DNA from: an uncultured Nitrososphaerota archaeon
GTDB taxonomy: Archaea > Asgardarchaeota > Njordarchaeia > Njordarchaeales > Njordarchaeaceae
Reading direction: 5' to 3'
Assembly (NCBI GenBank): GCA_964518475.1
Contig: CAZFGR010000001.1
Span: forward strand, 46,280 to 110,279
Length of the DNA stretch: 64,000 bases
Position 1 is the stretch's first letter; every line of letters begins with the position of its first letter. The position numbers were made by a program, and so were the translations under genes. Below, one piece after another: positions 681 to 63,704 of this stretch. The notes below the pieces were generated by a model. It ran no database searches. It saw nothing but the letters and a program-made list of their open reading frames with translations, and was not told the DNA's origin.

Positions 681-992
681 TCATCCAAGCATATCAGCAG
701 AACTTATTTGGAACGAGACAATGTTGTATTCACGAAGAATATCCCCAACCTTCTTACCAGCAAAGTATATTGGTTCTCCTCCACCAGTCAATCCTATCCT
801 TCCGCTTTTTATGCCTAATTTTTCAGCTGCTTCAAGCACTACTCGCTCCATTGAATCATTTATTGTCGTTCTGATCGCTATTGTTTTTCTCAGATTATCC
901 GCCCTCTGGAAATATAGTGTAACTATTTCGGGCAATTCTTCGTGTTCCTCAGTTTGCTTAAGCTCAGCGATTTTTTTATCACGCGATTCCAT
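681..992 (-). CDS. Ubiquitin-fold modifier (UFM1/ubiquitin-like beta-grasp protein) ending in a single C-terminal Gly
   Basis: 103 aa. After a 22-aa charged leader, an 81-aa core shows ubiquitin-like strings (KTIAIRTTINDSMERVV..KLGI; IYFAGKKVGD.LREYNI, compare ubiquitin KTITLEVEPSDTIENVK..KEGI; LIFAGKQLEDGRTLSDYNI). It has the same length as mature human UFM1 (as recalled), including VLxxAAE and a terminal xG. The stop codon directly follows Gly. It lies next to a UBA5-like E1. Confidence 0.6.
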   Translation of the reverse strand: MESRDKKIAELKQTEEHEELPEIVTLYFQRADNLRKTIAIRTTINDSMERVVLEAAEKLGIKSGRIGLTGGGEPIYFAGKKVGDILREYNIVSFQISSADMLG

Positions 993-1098: not shown

Positions 1099-1500
1099 CT
1101 ATTTCAATATCTCGTCGAGATGCTTCTTAGCCTTCTTTTTCAATTTTTCATCTTTCATCAGATTAGATTCTCTAATCTCAGCAAATTCGTCCTTAAGAGA
1201 ATCCATGCTCACTTTGAGATCACTAAGAATCTGTGCGAAAGAATCTAGTTTACCAACTAATTTACTAATACTTATGGACAATTTCAAGATATGATCCTCA
1301 ATTCTCTTCATCATATTAACTAATTCAGAAGTATTCTCATTAATCGTTGATAAAACCTCATTCCAAGCCTCCACTAATGATTTTAGAGATTCGGCGCTTG
1401 GTACTGGTCCCCGGGGCGTCTCTATAACATCTATAACTATAACCTTTTCCTTCTTCTCTGATTCGCCCTTACTCAATACTCTCACTCCCACAATACTCAC
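1099..1500 (-). CDS. Hypothetical coiled-coil protein between the Ubl and E1 genes
   Basis: 133-aa ORF with a heptad-like L/I/K/E-rich C-terminal two thirds. Its 5' end overlaps the E1 3' end by 32 nt, which suggests co-transcription. No recognisable family. Confidence 0.4.
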   Translation of the reverse strand: MSIVGVRVLSKGESEKKEKVIVIDVIETPRGPVPSAESLKSLVEAWNEVLSTINENTSELVNMMKRIEDHILKLSISISKLVGKLDSFAQILSDLKVSMDSLKDEFAEIRESNLMKDEKLKKKAKKHLDEILK

Positions 1501-2236
1501 AGTTTCTCCTTCTCTTTACCTTATCGTCACTTAATACTGTAATACTATTGTTACGCAAGCTAATTATTATCCTAGGAGCCACGTCATTATTATGTAATAT
1601 CTTTAATCCTTGATCTACCTGAATAGCCGCTATAATACTTATGGTTGTGGGTAATGAGGCGTCACAAGATCCGGATTCCTCCTCCCCTCCCAGCTCCACC
1701 AGAGTTCCCTCTCCAAAATAACACCCTAGACAAGGTGTCTTATATGGAATAACCGTTATAACACGCCCCCCTAGACCATCAGTACTTGTTCCTCCATCGA
1801 TAAGAGGCTTCCGAAGTTTTACAATCCAGTAATTAATCTCTAGCCTAGCCTCTACATTATCAAAGCATGTAAAAACAAGATCGCACTTCTTTAAAATCTC
1901 TGGAAGCTTCTCCCAACCTATAACATCGACATAGTACGTTTCTATATCTGGTGCAAAATTGCCTAGAATCTTCGATATCTTCGCCAGTTTATTAGCTAAC
2001 GCATTTACTTTCGGTTTACCAATATCCTCTACCTCAAAACCTAGTCTATTGAAGTTCTCCGGCCCGACAATATCACGATCCACAAGAATTAGCTTCCCAA
2101 TACCTAACCTGCCCAGCATCTCAGCAACCAAAACTCCTAAACCTCCAACTCCTAAAACACATGCGACTTTACTATGCACCAGCTCTGGATCCACTCCCGC
2201 CCTTTTTACTCTCTCCAGCATGGGGGGTAGAGCCAC
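1469..2236 (-). CDS. UBA5-like minimal E1 (ThiF/MoeB-fold adenylating enzyme)
   Basis: Carries GVGGLGVLVAEMLGRLGIGKLILVDRDIVGPENFNRLGF (compare human UBA5 [39 protein letters not shown], from memory) and DNVEARLEIN. A Zn pair PCLGC...NCEYCG is present. SGSCDASLPTTISIIAAIQ matches the UBA5 catalytic-Cys loop GVCAASLPTTMGVVAGI. At 255 aa it lacks the C-terminal UFM1/UFC1-binding tail of UBA5. Confidence 0.75.
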   Translation of the reverse strand: MALPPMLERVKRAGVDPELVHSKVACVLGVGGLGVLVAEMLGRLGIGKLILVDRDIVGPENFNRLGFEVEDIGKPKVNALANKLAKISKILGNFAPDIETYYVDVIGWEKLPEILKKCDLVFTCFDNVEARLEINYWIVKLRKPLIDGGTSTDGLGGRVITVIPYKTPCLGCYFGEGTLVELGGEEESGSCDASLPTTISIIAAIQVDQGLKILHNNDVAPRIIISLRNNSITVLSDDKVKRRRNCEYCGSESIE

Positions 2237-20698: not shown

Positions 20699-22582
20699 GT
20701 GATGATTATGGAGTTTAAGGGTGGGTGGATAGGTAAAATCTTGAGAGTCGACCTTTCTAAGGAAAGCGTGAAAGAAGAGGATCTTTCTAAGGAACTAGCT
20801 CTTGAGTGGATAGGTGGTCGTGGATTCGCTATAAAAATATTATGGGACGAATTAGAGCCGGGGATAGATCCATTATCTCCAGAGAATAAAGTTGTAATAG
20901 CTACTGGACCATTGACGGGTACTATAACACCTAGTAGCGGAAAACTGGTTGTAGCTACAAAATCCCCCCTCACGGGCGGTTATGGAGATGGGAACATCGG
21001 GACTCATTTTGCACATATGTTAAAGATGTCTGGATATGATGCTTTGGTACTCGAAGGAAGAGCGAAGAAACCCGTATATGTCTACATAACTCCTAATGGC
21101 GTCGAGATTAAAGACGCGTCTCATCTCTGGGGTAAAAGCGCTATTGAAACAGAAATTACTCTACGAAAAGATCATGGAAAAGACGTGGGCGTTATCAGCA
21201 TCGGCCCAGCAGCCGAAAATTTGGTAAAGTTTTCAGTTGTTATCTCCGAGTACGGCCGTGCAGGTGGAAGACCTGGAATCGGTACTGTCCTAGGATCTAA
21301 GAAAGTAAAGGCTCTTGTAGCCGAGGGATGGAACGATATCCCAGTAGCAGATATAGAAAAAGCCTTTAATCTAGCCTGGGAAGCTCGTATGAAACTACTA
21401 ACTCATCCAGGGTATAGGAAATGGATTAATCAGGGAACCATGATGACAATAGAGTGGTCTCAAGAAGCTAGTGTATTACCAACATACAACTTCAGCGAGG
21501 GAGTCTTTGACGATTACGCAAATATTGGCGGAGAAATAATGGAGAAAGAATATAAGTTATTAAGAAAGGGCTGTTTCTCATGTCCAATGCCCTGTGGTAA
21601 CTTATCAATAGCTAAACTCGGTAAGTTCATGAAGACATGGGCCGAGCTAGATTATGAAAACGTAGCAATGCTAGGTTCTAACATCGGTATTGACGACATG
21701 AATATTGTTATTAAGCTCAATAGACTAGCTGATGAGTGGGGCGTAGACACGATATCTCTTGGGAACGCTATTGGATTCGCCATAGAGTTATATCAAAAAG
21801 GCATTATTTCCCAGAAGCAGACTGGTGGATTAGAACTTAAATGGGGCGACGAAGAAGTTATCATTAGCCTTGCTGAGAAGATCGTGAAAAAGGAAGACAT
21901 CGGAAAAATACTCGCTGAAGGAGTAAAAGCCGCCGCTGAAAAAATAGGTAAAGAAGCTCCTAAGTACGCTATTCATGTAAAGGGCTTAGAAGTTTCTGCT
22001 TATGATTGCCACGCAGCACCTGGAATGGCACTATCCTATGGGACTTCTCCAATAGGCGCGCATCACAAGGATGCTTGGGTTATTTCTTGGGAGGTCAAAA
22101 TCGGTAGAGATAAGATAGATAAGAGCAAAGTCGATAAGGTTATAGAGTTCCAGCGTATTAGAGGCGGTCTATTTGAGATCTTGACGGTTTGTAGATTACC
22201 TTGGATCGAATTAGCATTAGATCTAGATTACTATCCAAAGCTATTTAACGCAATAACCGGCCTAGATTATACCCTAGAAAACTTCTTCTTCATAGCAGAT
22301 AAGATATATAACTTGATACGAGCATTCTGGATACGCGAATACGGAGAGTGGAAACGCGAATACGACTATCCACCGAGGAAATGGTTTGAGATACCTCTTT
22401 CAAAAGGTCCTCTCGCTGGTTCAAAGCTAAAGAAGGAAGCCTATGACAAGTTACTTGACTGGTACTATGAAGAAAGAGGGTGGGACAAAAACGGAATACC
22501 AAGAAAAAGCACGCTAGAGAAATTCGGTCTATCATATGTGATATCTACTCTGGAGGAAAGAGGCGTTACACTTTCTGAATAA
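20699..22582 (+). CDS. aor: Aldehyde:ferredoxin oxidoreductase family tungstoenzyme
   Basis: GKILRVDLSK......L....IGGRGFAIKILWDEL.PGIDPLSPENKVVIATGPLTGT..PSSGK. The 627-aa length and C-terminal AOR domains fit (..EVSAYDCHAAPGMALSYGTSPIGAHH). Confidence 0.9.
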   Translation: MMIMEFKGGWIGKILRVDLSKESVKEEDLSKELALEWIGGRGFAIKILWDELEPGIDPLSPENKVVIATGPLTGTITPSSGKLVVATKSPLTGGYGDGNIGTHFAHMLKMSGYDALVLEGRAKKPVYVYITPNGVEIKDASHLWGKSAIETEITLRKDHGKDVGVISIGPAAENLVKFSVVISEYGRAGGRPGIGTVLGSKKVKALVAEGWNDIPVADIEKAFNLAWEARMKLLTHPGYRKWINQGTMMTIEWSQEASVLPTYNFSEGVFDDYANIGGEIMEKEYKLLRKGCFSCPMPCGNLSIAKLGKFMKTWAELDYENVAMLGSNIGIDDMNIVIKLNRLADEWGVDTISLGNAIGFAIELYQKGIISQKQTGGLELKWGDEEVIISLAEKIVKKEDIGKILAEGVKAAAEKIGKEAPKYAIHVKGLEVSAYDCHAAPGMALSYGTSPIGAHHKDAWVISWEVKIGRDKIDKSKVDKVIEFQRIRGGLFEILTVCRLPWIELALDLDYYPKLFNAITGLDYTLENFFFIADKIYNLIRAFWIREYGEWKREYDYPPRKWFEIPLSKGPLAGSKLKKEAYDKLLDWYYEERGWDKNGIPRKSTLEKFGLSYVISTLEERGVTLSE

Positions 22583-22660: not shown

Positions 22661-22945
22661 TTAGCCGCCGCTTAGGAACGGCATTATTGAAACAATATCA
22701 CCATTCTTTAACTTAGTCCCAAGATCGTTAACTGATTGACCATTAATAAGAACTATTATGTTTTCGCTAAGGGTTTTTCTCTGACTTGATTCGAAAAGTA
22801 CTTTCTCTAGTTTTTCACCATATTTCTCCACTAACACATTTAATAGGTCTCTAATCGTTGCATCGTCTGGTAATGATATCTCCTCTTCTTTTACTTCATT
22901 AGTTAACTGTCTAAGATACGCGAAATACCTAACCTTTACCTGCAA
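22661..22945 (-). CDS. moaD: MoaD/ThiS-family beta-grasp sulfur carrier (SAMP-like), C-terminal Gly-Gly
   Basis: 94 aa, MQVKVRYFAYLRQL....I.LPDDATIRDLL..L..KYG......NIIVLINGQ......TKLKNGDIVSIMPFLSGG-stop. Confidence 0.75.
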   Translation of the reverse strand: MQVKVRYFAYLRQLTNEVKEEEISLPDDATIRDLLNVLVEKYGEKLEKVLFESSQRKTLSENIIVLINGQSVNDLGTKLKNGDIVSIMPFLSGG

Positions 22946-24297: not shown

Positions 24298-24390
24298 AAA
24301 AACCTCCTCAAAAGCAGTAATGTCTCATTACAAACCGAGATCCCAGGAATTATTAATTTATTTCTCTACTTAGACTATTTTAACAACAAG

Positions 24391-25407
24391 GTGAATAACA
24401 TGACTATTGATGAAAATGCATTAAGGATAATAGAGGACACAAGCAAGAGAATATCACAGATGATCGTAAGAGGCGCTACAAACATTGCTATCGAAGCTAT
24501 GAAGAGTCTAGAGAGTTTTATTAGGAACGTCCGAGACAACGCGCTGGAACTAAGTTTCTATAAAGCAGTAGAGATATTATTCAAGAGCAGACCGACAGAA
24601 CCCGCAATGCAAAATGGCATTATTTATGTCCTCGCAACATTTGAGAAAGAGAAACAGGAAACAAACTCTATATCTGAGTTAAAAAATGCCCTTATCACAG
24701 CGACACGAGAATATATAAGCCTACTTAAAACAGCTATTAATAAAATAATTGAGATTGGGTGGAGACGCGTTCCAGAAAACGGTATTGTTATGACTCATTG
24801 CCACTCATCAACTGTTGTCTCGATCCTGCAAAAAGCAAAAGATGCTGGTAAGAAATTCATTATTATTAGTTCGGAAACGAGACCCCTTTACCAAGGTCGA
24901 AAAACCTCCAAAGAACTAGGGAGCTATGGAATAAAAGTCTACCATATCGTTGACAGTGCAATGCGATGGGCCGCTAGAAAATTTAAACCTGATATGGCAT
25001 TGATTGGTGCTGATGCCGTTACTAGTACTGGCGTTGTTATAAATAAGATAGGCAGTAAACTTTTAGCACTAGTAGCCGCCGAATTCGATTTTCCCCTTTA
25101 CGTCGCTACAACACTCCTAAAACTCGATCCTAAGACTTTATTGGGTGGTTATACTCCGATAGAAATTAGAGATCCAAGAGAGGTGTGGGAAAACCCTCCC
25201 AGAAATATTGAAGTTTTAAATCCAGCATTTGAGACAATCGATCCCAGATATATAGACGGAATAATAACTGAAGCGGGAATAATTCCCCCAGAGATCTTTC
25301 AGTTAAAATTTGAAAGCACATATCCTAGGATATGGAATATAATCTCCAGTGAACAGGTAAGAAAACTATTTTTTTTTAAAAACTGTTTGGGAGAGAGATT
25401 CAAATGA
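24391..25407 (+). CDS. eIF-2B alpha/beta/delta family protein (ribose-1,5-bisphosphate isomerase / aIF-2B-II type)
   Basis: MIVRGATNIAIEA....SRPTEPAM.N......IVMTHCHSSTV..IL..A...GK.F.II.SETRPLYQGR.T.KEL...GI.V..IVDSA......ALIGADAVTSTGVVINKIGS..LAL.A...D.P.YV......NPAFE.ID..YIDGIITEAGIIPP. This is close to the Thermococcus R15P isomerase as recalled. Confidence 0.8.
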   Translation: MNNMTIDENALRIIEDTSKRISQMIVRGATNIAIEAMKSLESFIRNVRDNALELSFYKAVEILFKSRPTEPAMQNGIIYVLATFEKEKQETNSISELKNALITATREYISLLKTAINKIIEIGWRRVPENGIVMTHCHSSTVVSILQKAKDAGKKFIIISSETRPLYQGRKTSKELGSYGIKVYHIVDSAMRWAARKFKPDMALIGADAVTSTGVVINKIGSKLLALVAAEFDFPLYVATTLLKLDPKTLLGGYTPIEIRDPREVWENPPRNIEVLNPAFETIDPRYIDGIITEAGIIPPEIFQLKFESTYPRIWNIISSEQVRKLFFFKNCLGERFK

Positions 25408-26504
25408 TTCCTCCCGATTTAAGAGTAAAAATAACAAGAACGGGTGCAGAAATAGAGGCTCCGCTCCCTAAGGAGGAAATTTTGAATATTATCACGTCTC
25501 AGACGATCTCACAATTTAGAAAAAAATTCCGTAGAGCATTAGTTGAGTTCTATGGAAAAAACATCTTAGCGGGTGTTAGATTCATTAAAAATCTATTCGA
25601 AAGCTTGACAAGAGCAAAAATTCCAGACAGTATTGATGATCTCTACGCAATTATTGAAGAGACTGAAAAAACTCGCCCCGATATATTCATACACATTAAT
25701 GAAAAAAAGATTACATTCGCCTCAAAAATCATTAAGACTAGTGAGAAAGAATTAGAAGACTTCTTTACAATAATCTGTACCCTAAAGAGACCCGCTCGAG
25801 GAAGCGTATATAAATTCTTTATTAGAAAAAACCTCAGACCAATAATTAATTTCTTGGAAAAAAATCAAGAAAAACTCAATGGACTACATGAACTTCTCCT
25901 CCATGAATCAATGCTAAGAATAGCACAGGAAACACTTAGTAAGAACATACAAGCAGAAATGTTCAGATTTCTCCCAAGAGAACAGTCGGTAATAATCAAC
26001 ATTAGGAAAACTCCATTGAAATTAATAGAGATCTTCTCTCCAATAGAAGGAGATCTTCCTCCATATCCTATTATAGAAATCCTTCCCCAAATTAATGAAA
26101 AAGTCTCGGAACTTATAATTTCCTACTCAACAACAAGCGTAATGAATTATGTCACCACCTTTCTAGAAGAATATCTCAAATCCGTTGAGCCGGGAAACAT
26201 TAGCCTTCATATGCTAGAAAAATCGGATAGATTGCTTCTATCAATGATAGATAATGTATCCGTAGCCCATTTCGAAATTCTGCGCCAGGAAAACATACTA
26301 AACTCATCGCATACCCTACCTTCAAAGATTCTTGATGTAGCAATGGCTGTTCTTCGCGAGAAAATTTATACAAAAATAATTATTAGCAAAAACATCCAGT
26401 TACAGCTTCACGCATATCCTCAGACAAAATTCATTACACTAGATGAGAATTGGTCGGAATTTATTAAAGAGGAGATAAAATCGTTAAAAACGAAAATCGG
26501 TTGA
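25404..26504 (+). CDS. Hypothetical protein (no recognisable family), second gene of the UFC1-like operon
   Basis: 366-aa ORF with 4-nt ATGA-type overlaps to both neighbours. Alpha-helical, K/I/E-rich. Confidence 0.45.
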   Translation: MIPPDLRVKITRTGAEIEAPLPKEEILNIITSQTISQFRKKFRRALVEFYGKNILAGVRFIKNLFESLTRAKIPDSIDDLYAIIEETEKTRPDIFIHINEKKITFASKIIKTSEKELEDFFTIICTLKRPARGSVYKFFIRKNLRPIINFLEKNQEKLNGLHELLLHESMLRIAQETLSKNIQAEMFRFLPREQSVIINIRKTPLKLIEIFSPIEGDLPPYPIIEILPQINEKVSELIISYSTTSVMNYVTTFLEEYLKSVEPGNISLHMLEKSDRLLLSMIDNVSVAHFEILRQENILNSSHTLPSKILDVAMAVLREKIYTKIIISKNIQLQLHAYPQTKFITLDENWSEFIKEEIKSLKTKIG

Positions 26505-27514
26505 TAATCATGAAAAACCCTAGTAAGTGTTTTCTATGCCCCCATGAGTGTGAGGACGTTAGCGATCTAGTTAATGGTCTTTGTTACATAATAGGCCGAG
26601 AGAAAACAAGAGGAATAAACACCGTCTCTGCCGAAATTGTAAACGTTGAATCAGCTGGTTTTTTTCATTTTTTTCCCGGACATGAAGCTGTGAAGATTGC
26701 TCTCCCCGGATGCAACTTGCGATGTCTCTTCTGTGATTACTTGGGTGGAGAGAAAAATTGGATCGTTATCTCAGAACTTGAGAAAAAACTTTCTCTTTTG
26801 CTTGAAAAGAGTTCTCCACTGATATTATTTCTGGATTGCAGTTTCTCTATACTTCCTCCAGAACCATTGACGAGGATTATAAAATGGAAGAAAGTGTATA
26901 GGGGCGATGTCTGGATAATCCACGCAACAAACGGTTTTGTTGACGAGAATCACTTTAAGAGCATTATTGAGCATCTGGACGCTCTCCTCGTAAAATTTTT
27001 TGGATTCTCGGATGAAGCTTACGGGAGGCTCACGATTACGCCACGGGCTTGGAAGTATGCACAAAAAATTGTTGAGAGAGTACTTGAGAGAGGTCCTCTA
27101 CTTGAACTATCATATACTATTGTCCCTGGCTTTAATGAAAAAGACTACAAGGAGTTCTTAAACTGGTTATCGTCGCTTAGACAATTTGATATACCACTTC
27201 ATATTAGACGATTTTATCCAAAACATTTGTTAAAGAATAAAGCACCTACACGAACCAAGATTCTCATGGACGCTTTTAAGGAAGCCAAAAAGATGGGTTT
27301 TAATTACGTCTATATCGACGATATATACGAAGGCGTACCCAGAAATACTTATTGTCCTAATGACAGAACCCTCTTAATACGGAGAGTAGGATATTTCGTA
27401 GAGAACACAGGAATCATCGAATCAAAATGTAAAAAGTGTGGAAAAAGAATTAATGTTTTTGGAAAAATAAAGGAAACGGACATAAGAAGCATATTAAAAC
27501 TTCCAGGAGAATGA
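26501..27514 (+). CDS. Radical SAM enzyme, PflA/AmmeMemoRadiSam-like
   Basis: CX3CX2C cluster motif in LPGCNLRCLFCDY. An N-terminal Cys box KCFLCPHEC...GLC and a C-terminal YCPNDRTLLIRR......KCKKCGKRI are arranged as in AmmeMemoRadiSam-system radical SAM proteins. Confidence 0.7.
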   Translation: MIIMKNPSKCFLCPHECEDVSDLVNGLCYIIGREKTRGINTVSAEIVNVESAGFFHFFPGHEAVKIALPGCNLRCLFCDYLGGEKNWIVISELEKKLSLLLEKSSPLILFLDCSFSILPPEPLTRIIKWKKVYRGDVWIIHATNGFVDENHFKSIIEHLDALLVKFFGFSDEAYGRLTITPRAWKYAQKIVERVLERGPLLELSYTIVPGFNEKDYKEFLNWLSSLRQFDIPLHIRRFYPKHLLKNKAPTRTKILMDAFKEAKKMGFNYVYIDDIYEGVPRNTYCPNDRTLLIRRVGYFVENTGIIESKCKKCGKRINVFGKIKETDIRSILKLPGE

Positions 27515-28134
27515 TTCTAATGAGTGACAATAGAAATGATAGCACTCTCATCAATATAAAGGAAGCAATTAACGATCACGTTGTTATCAGATTTGATAAA
27601 CATCTAAGACAAACCATAATTAAGCTAGAACTACACTTGATGAGATTACCTAATAACTATTTCTTAACAATCTTTAAGCATTGCCTAGATATATGGATTC
27701 GCCGCCCTCTCCCTCTGTTTAACATAAAGGCAGGTCCAAGTGATAGAAACTGGTCTTTGAGAATAAGAGAGGAAAAGCGGGTCTTTCGGATACTTAAAAA
27801 GCATAACCCGTTCAGCAATATTATCTCTTACCAATTATTAGAAAATGCTGATTCGAAGGGGAAGAAATGGATCCTCATTTACTTAGATACATTAACTTAT
27901 CAGCCTAAACACGTCGAAATAACGATTCCTAATAATTATCCTCGAACACCCCCGGTAGTACACAGCCATGAGATAAAAAAGTTAGATCAGTGCCTCAACA
28001 AAGCGGATGAAAATATAGCGTCCCTATGGAGGAAAGATGGTAGATACGGTATTCCTCATTTTTTGGCATACTTTTTTTCTCCTTTGCTATATATGACCGC
28101 TTCTATTTTAAAAATAAGAAAAATATTCCAATAA
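27511..28134 (+). CDS. UFC1-like E2 (UBC-fold) protein, putative active-site Cys161
   Basis: KAGPSDRNWSLRIREEK (human UFC1 NAGPRDRELWVQRLKEE, from memory); VEITIPNNYPRTPPVV (FDIPITYPTTAPEI); QCLNK....ASLWRKDGRYGIPHFLAYFFSPLL ([32 protein letters not shown]). The Cys codon is at 27991..27993. There is an extra N-terminal extension of about 70 aa. Confidence 0.7.
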   Translation: MILMSDNRNDSTLINIKEAINDHVVIRFDKHLRQTIIKLELHLMRLPNNYFLTIFKHCLDIWIRRPLPLFNIKAGPSDRNWSLRIREEKRVFRILKKHNPFSNIISYQLLENADSKGKKWILIYLDTLTYQPKHVEITIPNNYPRTPPVVHSHEIKKLDQCLNKADENIASLWRKDGRYGIPHFLAYFFSPLLYMTASILKIRKIFQ

Positions 28135-28299
28135 GTTTTTAAAAAAATATACAAGCGATATAGTTATTATTACCGTTTTTATAGTCCATATAATACTGGT
28201 TTGCTATTGAATATACCTATGTATACTCATGGAAGTTTTATATATACAGAAAAACTGACTAGTTGTAGTAGACTATAAACCTTCTCAACAGGGTTTAAA

Positions 28300-29367
28300 A
28301 TGTCCATGAGAACTCTCTTAAAACTGGGAAAATCAAGCTTGGTAGTTGTTTTGCCAAAAGACTGGCTTAATGAAATGGGACTCAAAAACGGGGATAAAGT
28401 ACTAGTAAAACAGGAAGACGATGGAAGCCTAAAAATAATCCCTGCGAATATTTCTATTAGCGGTTCATCAAATAGCACACGATTGGTTGTTAACGTTGAT
28501 AAATGCAAGGATATAGGTCTCGTAACTAGACTCTTAATTGCTAATTATTTAATAGGGAACGATTCTATAATCATACACGCACGACGCGGAGGCATACCTC
28601 CAAACGTTTTAAAGGAAGTAAGAGATATCATCTCTAAGCTCCGCGGTTTCGAAATAATAGAGCAAAAACCCAATAGGCTTCTCTTACAATGCGTTACGGA
28701 TGCAACGAGCTTTTCTATAGATAACCTAATTGGACGAATGCTTTCCCTACTTCTATCAATGATTGATTATTTGAGACGAGGTCTTTCTGAGCAGAAAAGA
28801 GATTATTTCCAAGAAGCCATATTCATAGAGGAAGAAATCGACAGAATATATTGGTTCGGTGTCCGTCAATTAATAATGGTTCAGAAAAATAGAGCACTAG
28901 CCAAACTCGTTGGTCTAGAATCCACGCTACACATAGTAGGTAATAGAGCAATACTGAAATCGCTTGAATTGGCTGGAGATTACGTAGAAGAGATGGCCAG
29001 AGACCTTTCTAAACTTGATCTAGAGAAATTATCCCATCTCTCAGGAATAATAGGTAAAATATGCGACTTGATAAATGTAATAGAAGACATTATAAGCGAT
29101 GCCGTCCGTACATATAATGGCCTCGATATATTCCTTGCAAACGCTGTACTAGAAAAGATTAGGGAGATCACTGAAACAGCTCACTCACTAAGCGAGGAAA
29201 TCATGAATAGGTGCAGAGATGTAAAGACAGGCGTTATTCTGGTCAAGCTACTCACTAGATTATCTGACATGGCTAAAAGCATAGGCACTGTATGTGAAAT
29301 TATTCTAAATAGAGCAATGGAAAACCCAAGCAAGGGTCTACAAAACTGCATCTACAGAGAACTATGA
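28300..29367 (+). CDS. AbrB/SpoVT-domain plus PhoU-like regulator (paralogue 1)
   Basis: N-terminal RTLLKLGKSSLVVVLPKDWLNEMGLKNGDKVLVKQEDDGSLKIIP (swapped-hairpin AbrB fold), followed by helical PhoU-like repeats (..EEEIDRIYWFGVRQL..). Confidence 0.7.
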   Translation: MSMRTLLKLGKSSLVVVLPKDWLNEMGLKNGDKVLVKQEDDGSLKIIPANISISGSSNSTRLVVNVDKCKDIGLVTRLLIANYLIGNDSIIIHARRGGIPPNVLKEVRDIISKLRGFEIIEQKPNRLLLQCVTDATSFSIDNLIGRMLSLLLSMIDYLRRGLSEQKRDYFQEAIFIEEEIDRIYWFGVRQLIMVQKNRALAKLVGLESTLHIVGNRAILKSLELAGDYVEEMARDLSKLDLEKLSHLSGIIGKICDLINVIEDIISDAVRTYNGLDIFLANAVLEKIREITETAHSLSEEIMNRCRDVKTGVILVKLLTRLSDMAKSIGTVCEIILNRAMENPSKGLQNCIYREL

Positions 29368-29555: not shown

Positions 29556-30596
29556 ATGCTAAGAAGAAAACTTGTCAAGCTTGGAAAATCCAGTCTCGTA
29601 GTCTCACTACCAAAAGAATGGATAAATAACCTGAATCTTAACGCTGGAGATGAAGTCTCGATAACTTATTCTGAAGACGGATCCTTGATTATAACGCCAG
29701 CAAAATTCGCCATGCGTAAGAGGATATTGCCTCTTCTAATCGATATTACTAATTGTGATGAACCGCACCTAATTGAACGATTGATCATAGCAGCTTACGT
29801 TGTTGGAAAAGATCCTATTATTATTAAATCCGAGAGAGGGCTTTCTTCATCTCAGTTACGAGAAATAAGAACAGTGATCAATAATATTAGGGGCTTAGAA
29901 ATCGTGAAAGAAGACGAGAAAAACATTGTTCTCAGATCCTTCCTAGATCCTACGAAGTATCCTCTGACGGGACTCATCAAAAGGATAATTAACCTAGTTC
30001 AAGCAATGCTTGAGTTCTTAATCGAAGCTTTGAGGAGAAAAAATAAGAGCTATTTAGAAGAGCTTTTATATATTGAAGAAGAAGTTGATAGACTTTACTT
30101 CTCTACCCTGAGACAGATATTCTTAGCCGCTAAAATCAGAGAAATAGCCGAATCTATTGGAATAAAACGAAATATAGAGATTATGAGCTTGAAAACAATT
30201 ATCAAAGTTTTCGAGCTTCTTGCTGATGATTTAGCAAAAATAGCACGTTCAGCATTAAATCTAATAGAGAGCGGGGAGAATATTCTAGAAACTAATATGC
30301 ATGAATTCATTAACTTTCTAGCAGATATCTCATCCCTATTCAACTTCGTTTCTAAAATGATTCTCTACAACAACGCTAGCTTAACCAATGAACTCCTCAA
30401 CAAACTAGAAGATTTGCTGAAAGAGTATAGTGCACTGGATACACTATTCGCTACAAAAATAAAAAACGAAAAAGTTCTGAAATGGCTTAAGGAAGCTCTC
30501 TGGGGATTAATGATATTTACCGATATGTTAAGAATAATCGCAGAGATCTCGATTAACATTATAATTGATCGTGCTGAAAATAAATTTGAGTGTTAG
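29556..30596 (+). CDS. AbrB/SpoVT-domain plus PhoU-like regulator (paralogue 2)
   Basis: RKLVKLGKSSLVVSLPKEWINNLNLNAGDEVSITYSEDGSLIITP and EEEVDRLYFSTLRQI; same architecture as 28300..29367. Confidence 0.7.
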   Translation: MLRRKLVKLGKSSLVVSLPKEWINNLNLNAGDEVSITYSEDGSLIITPAKFAMRKRILPLLIDITNCDEPHLIERLIIAAYVVGKDPIIIKSERGLSSSQLREIRTVINNIRGLEIVKEDEKNIVLRSFLDPTKYPLTGLIKRIINLVQAMLEFLIEALRRKNKSYLEELLYIEEEVDRLYFSTLRQIFLAAKIREIAESIGIKRNIEIMSLKTIIKVFELLADDLAKIARSALNLIESGENILETNMHEFINFLADISSLFNFVSKMILYNNASLTNELLNKLEDLLKEYSALDTLFATKIKNEKVLKWLKEALWGLMIFTDMLRIIAEISINIIIDRAENKFEC

Positions 30597-57956: not shown

Positions 57957-60323
<2,367 letters not shown>

Positions 60324-60325
60324 AG

Positions 60326-62470
60326 ATGGGAAAACTTATGACAAAGGGAGAATTGAACAAGATGATAGAAGAAATTGCAAAAAGATTTGGGATAATTGGT
60401 AGAAGACAGGAACTTGAGGAAATTCTCTTAGCTAAGGAGATCGGAAGACCTGTACTAATTGAGGGACCCGTAGGAGTCGGAAAAACGACACTAGCTAAAG
60501 CAGTAGCCTCTTATTTTCAACAAAAATTTATCCGCGTAGATGGGGATGAACGCTTTGATGAATACAAATTAGTTGGTTACTTTGAGCCTCAACTGGTTCT
60601 TAAAAAGGGATGGAACTGGGATTCATTTGTCCCCGGACCTCTAACAAAAGCTATGCTTGAAGGAGGAGTACTTTTTATCAATGAAATAAATAGGTTAAAT
60701 GAGAGTGCACAAAACGTTCTAATACCAGCTCTAGATGAAGGCATAATTGAGATACCTAAGCTTGGAGAGATTCAAGCACAAGATGGCTTCTGGGTAGTAG
60801 CAACATTGAATCCAGAAGAATATGTGGGAGTAACTCCCATTGGAGAGGCTCTGAGGGATCGATTTATATGGATAAAGCTAGATTATCAAAGCGAAGAAGA
60901 GGAAGTTGAGATTGCTTGCCTTAGAGCTAAGGTTCCGAAGAACATTGCTCAATTAGCTGTTACCGTAACACGAGCTACTCGGCGACACCCCGATATTCGA
61001 AGAGGAGCTTCTGTACGGGGAGCAATAGATTTAGCAAAGCTAATTTATATAGCGACTCCAAATAATTTGACATTGGATAAACTTAAGAGATTAGCAATCA
61101 TAGCTTTAGGAACAAAAATAGAGATTACAGAGGGATCTGAGCGAACAGTTGAAGAAATAATCAGCGAGATTGTCGAGGAAATTTACCAAAAAAACAACTT
61201 TTTTCGTGAAAAACAAGTAATAAAGAGGAATGAGCTAAATATTAAAAAAGCCTCTAACACGATTTCTTCTGCTACTTCTATTGACCAGCCATCTTTTCGA
61301 GATGACCTAGAGAATACAAATTCTCATAATTATCAGCCTAACATTGACAATGACTCTTTTGAAGAATCCAGAACCGAATCCTCTACAAACACAACTGTTT
61401 TCCTTAGTTACGCAACTCCCTCAGGATCTTTTCTTCTTCTACGCGGAACGTTAGGACATTATGGTACCCAGCTAATCAGGGCTATCAAAGAGGGTCTCGA
61501 TATAAGAAATATCATCTCTAGAATAGACTATCCTCTACCAACTGACCTTTTGGAAATGCTTACGAAAGAAGCTATAAAGTATAGAAATTTTTTGGCTTTA
61601 GCATCATTAGCTCAAATAAATCCATACATTGTAGCTAAGGTACTTGAAGAAAGTCTCTCAAAAATCGACCAGACAGATGATATAAACTTGGTTCATACTT
61701 ATTATCTTACGAAGGATTTACTAAGCGAGAAAAAAAGGCGAATTTTTGCCAGATTGGCAAAGCATATTATTATTCGTAAAGCTCTCAGAATTGCTGGTAA
61801 GCGTCCAATAAGGAGCGGCTCTATAAGGAAGAAGACTTTTTACAGGCCCAGTTTAGATTTTGATTTAGAGACAACATTTGATATAGCTCTCGACAAAATT
61901 CTCTTCGAAAATATTACACGTTGGGATTTAATAGGAATCGAAAGGCGCGAAAAAAGAACCTCTGGTGTAATAGTTCTCGATATTAGCGGTAGCATGTATG
62001 GGGAAAAAAACGTATTAGCTTGCCTTATCTCCGCACTAACCATATCTTCCCTATCTACTGATGATGAAGTAGCGTTAATAGCATTTAGTGATCAGCCCTA
62101 CGTGATAAAATCCGTGAGGGATAAAGGAGATCTATCCAAAATTCTTGACACAATTTTTGATCTTAAACCGCTGGGATTTACTAATATTTCTGCAGCTTTG
62201 AGAGAGGCTGCAAAAGAGCTTAAAAAAGCTCGTCTAAAAACACGTAAGTGGGTAATTCTCATTACTGATGGCGAATATAACAGAGGTGGTCATCCGTTAA
62301 AATGGGCCTCTCTTCTACCCCGTTTACATGTAATTCAACTTGGAGGCGGAACTCGGGGAACGATCGTTTGCAAAGAACTTAGCAAAGGGCGAGGGAAATA
62401 CATTAGGGTAAATGATATTAATTCATTGCTTGAACGCGTTAGATATCTGTTAAAGCACCCCGACAAGTGA
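60326..62470 (+). CDS. MoxR/AAA_5-type ATPase fused to a C-terminal von Willebrand A (MIDAS) domain (ChlD-like architecture)
   Basis: LIEGPVGVGKTTLAKAVA (Walker A), VLFINEINR (Walker B), ..ATLNPEE..G...I.EALRDRF. A low-complexity N/S/T linker follows. The VWA domain has VIVLDISGSMYG...LIAFSD......GFTNI..AL......ILITDGE. It starts 2 nt after the cdc48 stop. Confidence 0.75.
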   Translation: MGKLMTKGELNKMIEEIAKRFGIIGRRQELEEILLAKEIGRPVLIEGPVGVGKTTLAKAVASYFQQKFIRVDGDERFDEYKLVGYFEPQLVLKKGWNWDSFVPGPLTKAMLEGGVLFINEINRLNESAQNVLIPALDEGIIEIPKLGEIQAQDGFWVVATLNPEEYVGVTPIGEALRDRFIWIKLDYQSEEEEVEIACLRAKVPKNIAQLAVTVTRATRRHPDIRRGASVRGAIDLAKLIYIATPNNLTLDKLKRLAIIALGTKIEITEGSERTVEEIISEIVEEIYQKNNFFREKQVIKRNELNIKKASNTISSATSIDQPSFRDDLENTNSHNYQPNIDNDSFEESRTESSTNTTVFLSYATPSGSFLLLRGTLGHYGTQLIRAIKEGLDIRNIISRIDYPLPTDLLEMLTKEAIKYRNFLALASLAQINPYIVAKVLEESLSKIDQTDDINLVHTYYLTKDLLSEKKRRIFARLAKHIIIRKALRIAGKRPIRSGSIRKKTFYRPSLDFDLETTFDIALDKILFENITRWDLIGIERREKRTSGVIVLDISGSMYGEKNVLACLISALTISSLSTDDEVALIAFSDQPYVIKSVRDKGDLSKILDTIFDLKPLGFTNISAALREAAKELKKARLKTRKWVILITDGEYNRGGHPLKWASLLPRLHVIQLGGGTRGTIVCKELSKGRGKYIRVNDINSLLERVRYLLKHPDK

Positions 62471-62538
62471 AGTAATTATTCATCCAGCCTTCTTCTCGAT
62501 AAGTTTTTGAAAATCCTTGACGCTGTATATGAGGGTAT

Positions 62539-62880
62539 CTAGAAATATTTCTTCAGAAACTCATTCCATTCTTTGACCCTAACAAATGGTGGATTCGTAA
62601 CACCTTCTTCAAAAGCCTTAGTGAATTTCTTCTTTAATTCCTCGATTTTTCTTCTTAATCTATTTATAGCTCTGCGAACGGCATCCAGAGGATCTCCTTG
62701 CTTTGTTCTGACGATAAACTCTATTCTATCAAACAATGGGTGCTCTATTTTGTATGCCGCAAAATCCACATCTTCGTCCGCTAGTAATTCCACTCTTAAC
62801 GCATTAAAAAGTGTGTGAGTCTCACCATATACTTTGAAGCGGAGTACTGTGGGCCCATACTCTAATATTTCTATACGCAT
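62539..62880 (-). CDS. rpo11: DNA-directed RNA polymerase subunit Rpo11 (RpoL)
   Basis: MRIEILEYGPTVLRFKVYGETHTLFNALRVELLADEDVDFAAYKIEHPLFDRIEFIVRT..GDPLDAVRRAI; the Rpo11 signature GE.HTL.N.LR..L....V.FA.Y...HP. The ATG at 62880 is preferred to the track start at 62949. Confidence 0.8.
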   Translation of the reverse strand: MRIEILEYGPTVLRFKVYGETHTLFNALRVELLADEDVDFAAYKIEHPLFDRIEFIVRTKQGDPLDAVRRAINRLRRKIEELKKKFTKAFEEGVTNPPFVRVKEWNEFLKKYF

Positions 62881-63122
62881 TTTTTGGGATCGAGGCTTCC
62901 ACCATGGAGTAGAGCCGTAGTACTTTATAAGATCCGTCAAGGTGCCCACCTTCTATGTTACCTAACGTACGATATTGAAATATCCTAAGTCTCATGATAT
63001 ATATCTCTTATCATCCATACATAATATAGATACTCTCTATTAGGGTGATTTAACTGGGGTTAGCTGAAATACGGAAAAGATTAGAGACCACGGGCCTAAA
63101 AGAAAAGAAGAAATACAAAAAA

Positions 63123-63704
63123 ATGATCTCTGATTTTGAAAATGTGATAAAGAAGCTAGAGGAAGTTATAAAAGCCATAGAAGATTTCGAGAAAAAATGG
63201 GGAAAAACTGTTGAATTTAAGGAATTTGATCTCCACCAAATAGTGGTTCCTCTGAAAAAGCGACCAAGTCTTCTTGATAGAATAACTGGCAAATATTATT
63301 CGGATCTCGCTCTTGAAATTCTGAGTGTTGCCGATAACGATAAACTATCGCTCATAAGTGTAGGAGATTTAATTATGAGGGTGAAGAAATCGATTCCGTA
63401 TGCCAATACAGATGACGTCCTGAAAGCGCTTGATATATTAAAGAGGAAGGGATTAGTTACCGACTTATTCCGGGAAGGTGGTGTATTGTATGTGGAATTT
63501 CCCACAATTTATGAGGATATAAGAAGACTTATCCAATTATTCAAGCAAGAGAGAAAAGAGTATATTACCTTGGAAGAAGCTGCCGAGAAACTTGATTGGA
63601 GTTTAGTGAAGGCATATAGAGTATTAGAGAGAATGGTAGAGCTTGGAATATTAGTTCGAGAGAATTTTCCTAGGAGATATTGGTTGATAAAGAAGACAAG
63701 ATAA
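63123..63704 (+). CDS. Vps22/SNF8-like ESCRT-II subunit (EAP30 tandem winged-helix protein)
   Basis: GKYYSDLALEILSV....LSLISVGDLIMRVKKS....NTDDVLKALDILKRKGLVTDLFREGGVLYVEFP......ITLEEAAEKLDWSLVKAYRVLERMVELGILVRENFPRRYWL parallels human SNF8 (from memory) GDFYYELGVQIIEV...GGLITLEELHQQV......VSQDDLIRAIKKLKALG.GFGIIPVGGTYLIQSVP....YVTVSEIKASLKWETERARQVLEHLLKEGLAWLD...HYWL. Confidence 0.6.
   Translation: MISDFENVIKKLEEVIKAIEDFEKKWGKTVEFKEFDLHQIVVPLKKRPSLLDRITGKYYSDLALEILSVADNDKLSLISVGDLIMRVKKSIPYANTDDVLKALDILKRKGLVTDLFREGGVLYVEFPTIYEDIRRLIQLFKQERKEYITLEEAAEKLDWSLVKAYRVLERMVELGILVRENFPRRYWLIKKTR

Follow-up and report, generated by a model that had tools for sequence, protein, structure and literature searches.

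We analysed a 64-kb window (the whole stretch of 64,000 nucleotides from contig CAZFGR010000001.1) and found that the 207-aa protein encoded at its positions 27511-28134 is a real, highly divergent and fast-evolving E2 of the UFC1 type. UFC1 is the enzyme attaching the ubiquitin-like protein UFM1 in eukaryotes. The gene is the last of four tightly packed genes, one of which encodes a radical S-adenosylmethionine (SAM) enzyme. With moderate confidence we favour a composite reading of this locus, in which the window holds a dispersed archaeal UFM1-like cascade whose E2 gene was appended to an unrelated operon. The folds and families of the proteins, the conserved Cys residues, the synteny patterns and the presence in the window of an activating enzyme (E1) and a ubiquitin-like protein (Ubl) are observed. 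The window comes from an Asgard-type archaeon (~38% GC; an ESCRT-II EAP30 protein, Sec61-beta, ribosomal proteins and proteasome subunits are encoded), and its closest relative in genome and metagenome collections was a Njordarchaeota metagenome-assembled genome (MAG). The four open reading frames (ORFs) that a preliminary description of this DNA had delimited were found as follows, all on the + strand:

24391..25407, + strand: probable ribose-1,5-bisphosphate (R15P) isomerase of the eIF2B-related family, 338 aa; first cistron, window-specific, probably a metabolic hitchhiker
25404..26504, + strand: unk36x, 366 aa, no known family; conserved partner of the radical-SAM enzyme, candidate substrate or adaptor
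26501..27514, + strand: radical-SAM enzyme, 337 aa; divergent offshoot of the AmmeMemoRadiSam/PflA-activase group
27511..28134, + strand: UFC1-like E2, A-type (see below) with N-terminal extension, 207 aa; last cistron, candidate catalytic Cys161

Pfam UFC1 (PF08694) matched residues 67-194 of the 207-aa protein with 8.9e-8 (32.4 bits against the gathering cut-off of 25). Through a phmmer search of all PDB sequences, 26 matches were obtained and all were UFC1 (2e-5); the identity to UFC1 was 22-24%. The three separate UFC1-like blocks noticed in the preliminary description are visible in the HMMER alignments to UFC1 structures, and the blocks common to the two proteins read (K/N)AGP.DR.W..R..EE, IP..YP..P and C(L)...LW....G(I/L).H. 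An AlphaFold model of moderate quality, built from a five-sequence family alignment, had a predicted local distance difference test score (pLDDT) of 70-90 over residues 60-200. With this model, Foldseek placed UFC1 at all of ranks 1-28 (probability 1.0, target-normalised template-modelling score 0.51-0.59), while other E2 folds and those of ubiquitin E2 variants (UEV) appeared only at E > 0.03. By the predicted model and Foldseek, the protein has the ubiquitin-conjugating (UBC) fold expected of it, closest to UFC1.

The candidate catalytic residue, Cys161, lines up with Cys116 of UFC1 throughout the 20 archaeal A- and B-type sequences and human UFC1, the human sequence as used being consistent with the PDB alignment. 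The Cys proposed earlier as catalytic is thus aligned in every relative, and the surrounding CL...LW...G(I/L)xH is also kept in every relative, including a 47%-identical orthologue. An N-terminal extension is present as first described, although it amounts to ~55 aa relative to UFC1 and not to ~70; it is conserved in the orthologue and is therefore coding. The loop before Cys161 is indeed shorter, by ~8 residues compared with human UFC1. In UFC1 this loop carries the TAK motif, the counterpart of the HPN motif in other E2s. Alignment with UFC1 revealed no recognisable TAK motif in the loop before Cys161, and the archaeal B-types also are without TAK. On the family hidden Markov models (HMMs) the protein scored 87 bits as A-type versus 53 bits as B-type. 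Considering that most UFC1 hallmarks are present and the TAK loop is absent, the protein is best called an archaeal variant of the UFC1 kind, with predicted thioester chemistry.

The family is very rare and appears to be restricted to Asgard archaea. When 1.84 billion representative proteins were searched exhaustively with HMMER, eight matches to the E2 family came up, of which ~5 were true relatives. Exact-sequence look-up of the 207-aa protein gave no record, and word-indexed homologue searches with the E2 and unk36x as queries returned almost nothing. Through pattern-based searches of genome and metagenome collections, we found 17 loci of the E2 family, and all of them other than the Njordarchaeota-type loci carry one conserved cassette. 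The hosts are Helarchaeota, Jordarchaeia, unassigned archaeon or metagenome contigs and a contig binned as 'Deferrimicrobium'. The genes of the cassette are, in order:

Ubl, ~90 aa, ending ...DQLG
A-type UFC1-like E2, carrying an N-terminal extension
JAMM protease, 390-476 aa, with JAMM/MPN+ motif EVGFY...HxHxHP...YSxTD and a weak BilC match (PADLOC)
ThiF-type E1, ~275 aa, best PDB match UBA5 (2.5e-25)
B-type UFC1-like E2, Pfam UFC1 1.3e-6
Cassette positions: L002 7158-10468; L003 9529-13138; L004 6821-10509; L005 7840-11443; L008 253-3366; L012-L015 at equivalent positions

The cassette resembles a UFM1-type conjugation operon, apparently unreported in archaea, and both of its E2 paralogues keep the Cys. 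Neither a radical-SAM gene nor a unk36x homologue was present in any cassette locus examined.

Some further features of the cassette were observed. It is often situated between a gene for an EF-2-like GTPase of ~806 aa and an SMC gene. The middle segment of the JAMM protein (10486-11769 in L003; orthologues in L004, L005 and L012-L015) resembles a ubiquitin-like domain (YRIFMEE...VFYE.G.KL...), and its tail is of low complexity with a conserved RLDYFI end, possibly a docking motif for E1 or E2. The 106-kb contig binned as the bacterium 'Candidatus Deferrimicrobium' (L003, DATKTP010000204.1, and L010) carries the cassette and is nearly collinear with Asgard contigs; it is probably mis-binned.

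A six-frame HMM search of the window with the cassette profiles located the E1 and Ubl genes far from the E2:

1469..2236, - strand: UBA5-like E1, 255 aa, ThiF adenylation domain, candidate catalytic Cys190; presumed E2-activating enzyme
1099..1500, - strand: predicted coiled-coil protein, 133 aa; ORF between E1 and Ubl
681..992, - strand: Ubl candidate, 103 aa, ending ...DMLG (Gly103); homologue of the cassette Ubl, possibly Ufm1-like

The E1 matched the cassette E1 HMM with 1.1e-83 and Pfam ThiF with 1.2e-39. Its best PDB match was UBA5 (3e-26), followed by ThiF (1e-15) and MoeB (1e-13). In the alignment with UBA5 the CxxC site is kept, and the motif around Cys190 reads sgsCdaslptt versus egvCaaslptt. 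The genome that encodes the E2 also encodes a UBA5-type cognate E1, in which C-(A/D)-ASLPTT is kept. The Ubl candidate matched the cassette Ubl HMM (E 7.4e-4) with ~30% full-length identity to the cassette Ubls ending DQLG, and sequence-level searches with the 103-aa Ubl or the cassette Ubl gave no match to UFM1. The UBA5-like E1 and the Ubl that the preliminary description had assumed are both present. The 133-aa protein between them showed weak coiled-coil-type Pfam noise only and no match to the HMM of the cassette JAMM protein. Neither a cassette-type JAMM protease nor a B-type E2 was found in the window by HMM search.

The three genes form a compact locus 25 kb away from the E2, flanked by the genes for Sec61-beta and the primase large subunit; the E1 ORF shares ~65 nt with the end of the primase gene. 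A MoaD/ThiS-like protein of 94 aa with a GG end (22661-22945, - strand) was considered as the Ubl of the E2 and rejected: it is an archaeal MoaD-type protein encoded beside a tungsten aldehyde oxidoreductase, and the candidate at 681-992 is better. This MoaD/SAMP-like protein scored above the cut-off of moaD_arch and just below that of SAMP1. The neighbouring gene at 20699-22582 encodes a tungsten-type aldehyde:ferredoxin oxidoreductase, and the synteny of the MoaD/SAMP-like gene is kept in all relatives, inverted in the lineages described below as asnB-type.

The E2 most likely works with this E1 (1469-2236) and this Ubl (681-992). By homology, the E1 would adenylate Gly103 of the Ubl and carry the Ubl on Cys190; the Ubl would then be handed to Cys161 of the E2, which would attach it to target lysines. 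Most Asgard lineages have these components in a single cassette, and in the Njordarchaeia-like lineage of the window the cassette is dispersed. Thioester transfer, co-transcription and lack of functional coupling are the parts of the composite reading that we infer.

Identity to the cassette counterparts is 44-48% for the E1 (against every cassette E1) and just 24-30% for the E2 (against the cassette A-type E2s), so the E2 is evolving fast. The same disparity might be expected if the E2 were a degenerating or non-catalytic, UEV-like relic left after the break-up of the cassette and at most a binding protein. Such decay would also suit the shortened loop before Cys161, which has no TAK or HPN equivalent, and an E1 locus holding no JAMM protease or second E2. 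However, Cys161 and its surrounding motif are kept in every relative, the E2 ORF is intact in at least two lineages, and E1 and Ubl are intact and conserved; we consider a relic quite improbable and retain the composite reading with an active E2.

The preliminary description had treated the four genes as one system, and comparison with relatives did not bear this out: the tetrad is not conserved, and the nearest relative keeps three of the genes, without the isomerase. The Njordarchaeota MAG and the metagenome contigs that match it (L001/L007, L006 and L031) are syntenic with the window over the whole neighbourhood. On one side are genes for the aldehyde oxidoreductase, the MoaD-like protein and a phosphoribosyltransferase as well as pyrF; on the other are two AbrB-PhoU genes with a 281-aa gene. 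Between these flanks there are only unk36x, the radical-SAM gene and the E2 gene, tightly packed; no eIF2B-family gene stands between pyrF and unk36x in L001, L006 or L031.

Orthologues of the radical-SAM enzyme with 34-36% identity were found in the same syntenic slot, from pyrF to AbrB-PhoU, in four further lineages. These are represented by loci L018-L022 and L028-L030, from two NCBI Asgard MAGs (GCA_029856055.1 and GCA_026993975.1), Logan assemblies and ENA/JGI contigs. Their operon consists of a 363/364-aa unk36x homologue, an asparagine synthase (NCBIfam equivalog asn_synth_AEB, 346 bits against a cut-off of 267) and the radical-SAM enzyme, with overlapping stops and starts:

L018 3176-6710; L019 3484-7032; L021 1756-5304; L028 300-2765: asnB-type loci, asparagine synthase between unk36x and radical-SAM enzyme

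No UFC1-like sequence was found in these asnB-type loci (L018-L022, L028-L030), the statement applying to those loci only. What is conserved, then, is the pair of unk36x and the radical-SAM enzyme; the E2, the asparagine synthase and the isomerase were each added in particular lineages. Only in two lineages does the E2 directly follow the radical-SAM gene; these are closely related and share the synteny of the flanking genes as well, and the arrangement in them is for that reason not independent evidence. Since the loci from the other lineages contain either the radical-SAM gene or the E2 but not both, the link between the two is at best young and lineage-specific.

The embedded asparagine synthase may mean that the module tolerates unrelated passengers, or that its chemistry involves amide formation. 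Also, one cassette locus (L008, whose A-type E2 is closest to that of the window, GC 0.349) and one asnB-type locus (L029, GC 0.341) come from the same JGI metagenome, Ga0180302. If the two belong to one organism, asnB-type lineages would keep their E2 in the cassette.

In the composite reading, one A-type E2 gene would have been added to the 3' end of a vertically inherited and unrelated unk36x-radical-SAM module. This module would accept unrelated passengers, among them the asparagine synthase in four lineages and the R15P isomerase at the front in this genome only. The product would be a composite operon and not a dedicated E2-radical-SAM system, and the adjacency of the E2 and radical-SAM genes is probably incidental.

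Several observations weigh against this. The E2 has no recognisable TAK-motif loop, and its chemistry may therefore differ from that of UFC1. The junction of the radical-SAM and E2 genes is tight in both lineages, with a 4-nt overlap in the window and a 20-nt overlap in L001. Between the window and Njordarchaeota, unk36x is 35% identical (35-36%), the radical-SAM enzyme 53% and the E2 47%, as against 62-89% for the flanking proteins, and the faster divergence of the three could reflect co-evolution. As a side observation, the triad as a whole (25404-28134 in the window, 7479-10162 in L001) is evolving unusually fast.

These tight junctions and the shared raised divergence are what one would expect of a real functional module, in which unk36x and the radical-SAM enzyme would have gained the E2 as a working partner. 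The distance of the E2 gene from those of its E1 and Ubl, which leaves room for a new partnership, points the same way. The Ubl might, for example, be conjugated to unk36x or to the radical-SAM enzyme and so control radical chemistry, or the radical-SAM enzyme might modify the E2, the Ubl or unk36x. We find such a module doubtful, because its arrangement is seen in only two closely related lineages, the unk36x-radical-SAM pair occurs without the E2 in four lineages, radical-SAM genes are missing from the vicinity of all other E2 family members, and the operon also carries clearly unrelated enzymes. We hold it unlikely that the Njordarchaeia E2 was rewired from the cassette into a radical-SAM module, so that conjugation through Cys161 would target or regulate unk36x or the radical-SAM enzyme, or the latter would modify a component of the Ubl pathway.

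The radical-SAM enzyme matched Pfam Radical_SAM (PF04055) with 4.5e-11 (43.6 bits against a cut-off of 29.5). The motif C71-x3-C75-x2-C78 is conserved in all orthologues, and the N- and C-terminal Cys motifs are also kept. Its placement in the PflA/AmmeMemoRadiSam group, as first proposed, agrees with the NCBIfam comparison. The best family was TIGR04337 at 98 bits, far below the cut-off of 220, with weak matches to PFLA and the YjjW activase. A distant homologue (P0020, 26% identity) is a canonical AmmeMemoRadiSam enzyme adjoining Memo-AMMECR1, and no Memo or AMMECR1 was found in the window. With its score below the cut-off and the partners absent from the window, the enzyme falls outside the AmmeMemoRadiSam family proper. 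It shares with that system the N-terminal Cys motif, CxxxCxxC and the C-terminal Cys-rich tail, and differs in having unk36x as its partner in place of Memo/AMMECR1. The enzyme most likely acts with or on unk36x, which would take the place of Memo/AMMECR1 in the parent family. Enzymes of the PflA type act on protein substrates (they are glycyl-radical activases), and this habit would also suit the functional module discussed above.

The 366-aa unk36x belongs to no recognisable family, as had been stated. The protein gave no match in Pfam, NCBIfam, PADLOC or PDB, including a profile search of PDB sequences, and a search of a 5.8-billion-protein database returned only the protein itself. By hhalign, unk36x is homologous over the full length to the 363/364-aa proteins encoded in L018, L019 and L021 (probability 98.9, E 3.7e-17). 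AlphaFold gave no usable model from the single sequence (pLDDT 33). Two possible kinships of unk36x were considered and rejected, one with the cassette JAMM protein (BLAST E of ~1 only, hhalign probability 0.3) and the other with Memo or AMMECR1, of which it might have been a divergent form (hhalign probability 0.2); by hhalign it is unrelated to any cassette protein. The invariant residues include Lys102, Lys137 and Lys153, and Gly133 in R-x3-G-x-V-(Y/I)-K (residues 129-137), with no Cys or His among them. This pattern would fit a substrate or adaptor better than a metalloenzyme, and the invariant lysines without a catalytic-looking Cys or His would again suit a module in which unk36x receives the Ubl. 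Considering the activase-like enzyme encoded next door, a glycyl-radical or other protein-modification site in unk36x is conceivable.

The first gene most probably encodes a ribose-1,5-bisphosphate isomerase, as judged by family and structure matches. Pfam IF-2B matched the 338-aa protein with 1.3e-62, and among NCBIfam models eIF-2B_rel scored 198 bits against a cut-off of 185.9. The best PDB matches were R15P isomerases (5yfj, 6.5e-58, full length), followed by MtnA (7e-32) and eIF2B subunits (~1e-18). Like the archaeal R15P isomerases of Thermococcus/Pyrococcus (PDB 3A11, 5YFJ), the protein aligns over the full length and keeps the active-site segments MTHCHS and GAD. It differs from them in scoring below the cut-off of the equivalog TIGR00511 (235 against 314 bits) and in being encoded before unrelated genes. 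We rejected two other identities for it, namely an eIF2B translation factor and a 5-deoxyribose-1-phosphate isomerase working for the radical-SAM enzyme, the protein being clearly R15P-isomerase-like and not conserved in the operon.

In bacteria, an eIF2B-related isomerase of the MtnA family salvages the 5-deoxyribose formed by radical-SAM enzymes (PMC6079011). With this precedent, and with the isomerase gene overlapping unk36x by 4 nt, the locus could be read as a single metabolic pathway, in which the isomerase recycles a ribose-derived by-product of the radical-SAM enzyme (5'-deoxyadenosine or 5-deoxyribose), while the role of the E2-like protein lies outside Ubl conjugation. This is very improbable, because the isomerase matches R15P isomerases far better than MtnA-type ones and is absent from all orthologous operons, and its position adjoining pyrE and pyrF fits nucleotide metabolism. 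A defence system of the Bil or CBASS type was likewise rejected, since the four window proteins gave no PADLOC match and the neighbours are housekeeping genes.

The preliminary description had the four genes chained by 4-nt ATGA-type overlaps. This holds at 25404 and 27511; at 26501 the sequence is TTGA. The database gene call for the radical-SAM enzyme (P0011, 334 aa) starts at ATG 26510, 5 nt past the upstream stop, which makes the overlap at 26501 doubtful and ATG 26510 the probable start, the genes still being tightly packed. The start of unk36x at 25404 is backed by the conserved N-terminus (MIPP/MLPT) of its orthologues, and the isomerase gene probably starts at ATG 24400, with GGTGA 6 nt upstream. 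The flanking non-coding regions are:

24298..24390, no strand assigned: AT-rich divergent intergenic region from pyrF to the operon; presumed promoter region, from its sequence
28135..28299, + strand: T-rich and AT-rich spacer 3' of the E2 stop codon, starting AGTTTTTAAAAAAA, 165 nt to the next gene; presumed operon end, from its sequence

As far as their packing indicates, a single transcript and translational coupling are probable for the four genes. Among the co-directional adjacent gene pairs of the window, 20 of 41 are separated by <=10 nt and seven of 41 have an exact 4-nt overlap. Tight packing is therefore the norm in this genome, and the overlaps argue for co-transcription while saying little about shared function.

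Directly 3' of the operon are two tandem paralogous AbrB/MazE-PhoU regulators (28300-29367 and 29556-30596, + strand), a pair kept in every related locus with up to 86% identity. At the window edge, region 58062-63704 contains a putative Cdc48-like ORF, an AAA_5-VWA protein (60326-62470), an Rpb11-like subunit and an ESCRT-II EAP30/Vps22-like protein (63123-63704), and may be the start of an Asgard ESCRT/ubiquitin region.

According to a phylogenomic study of 2023, UFC1 and UFM1 are confined to eukaryotes, UBA5 came from bacteria, and UFL1 and DDRGK1 derive from Asgard archaea (PMC10183829). A structural survey of 2026 reported Ufm1 homologues in nine Asgard clades and did not mention UFC1 (PMC12962969). 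Our literature searches on archaeal UFC1, PF08694, AmmeMemoRadiSam function and operons of an E2 with a radical-SAM enzyme found no prior description. UFC1 homologues in Asgard archaea thus seem to be unreported, and the earlier remark that no E2-radical-SAM system had been described agrees with these searches.

What the analysis adds is an Asgard family of UFC1-type E2s whose genes normally adjoin those of a JAMM protease, a UBA5-type E1 and a Gly-terminated Ubl, a set that is dispersed in one lineage. Prokaryotes thereby provide a concrete candidate for the ancestral form of the UFMylation cascade; the proteins in the window (E1 of 255 aa, Ubl of 103 aa, E2 of 207 aa) make up a small set that could be reconstituted in vitro. 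We consider the Asgard UFC1/UBA5/Ubl/JAMM cassette a more valuable lead than the four-gene 'system'. The adjacency in the window points to an uncharacterised conserved pair, unk36x and a divergent AmmeMemoRadiSam-like enzyme, that is worth study. A rewired E2-radical-SAM module, if true, would be the first link of ubiquitin-like conjugation to radical-SAM chemistry.

Compared with the eukaryotic UFC1/UBA5/UFM1 system, the partner E1 of the window is likewise most similar to UBA5 and keeps the catalytic-Cys motif, and the partner Ubl ends D-x-(L/V)-G. The window E2 differs from eukaryotic UFC1 by its ~55 extra N-terminal residues, its shorter, TAK-less loop and its operon with a radical-SAM enzyme. 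The window E1 is a bare adenylation domain of 255 aa and, unlike UBA5, has no C-terminal UFM1-/UFC1-binding tail. No homologue of UFL1, DDRGK1 or UFSP was identified in this analysis. The E2, E1 and Ubl of the window are homologous to the A-type E2, E1 and Ubl of the Asgard cassette, but the window genes are dispersed, with E1, coiled-coil protein and Ubl at 0.7-2.2 kb and the E2 at 27.5 kb. The Asgard cassette itself is similar in layout to the bacterial BilABCD Ubl systems.

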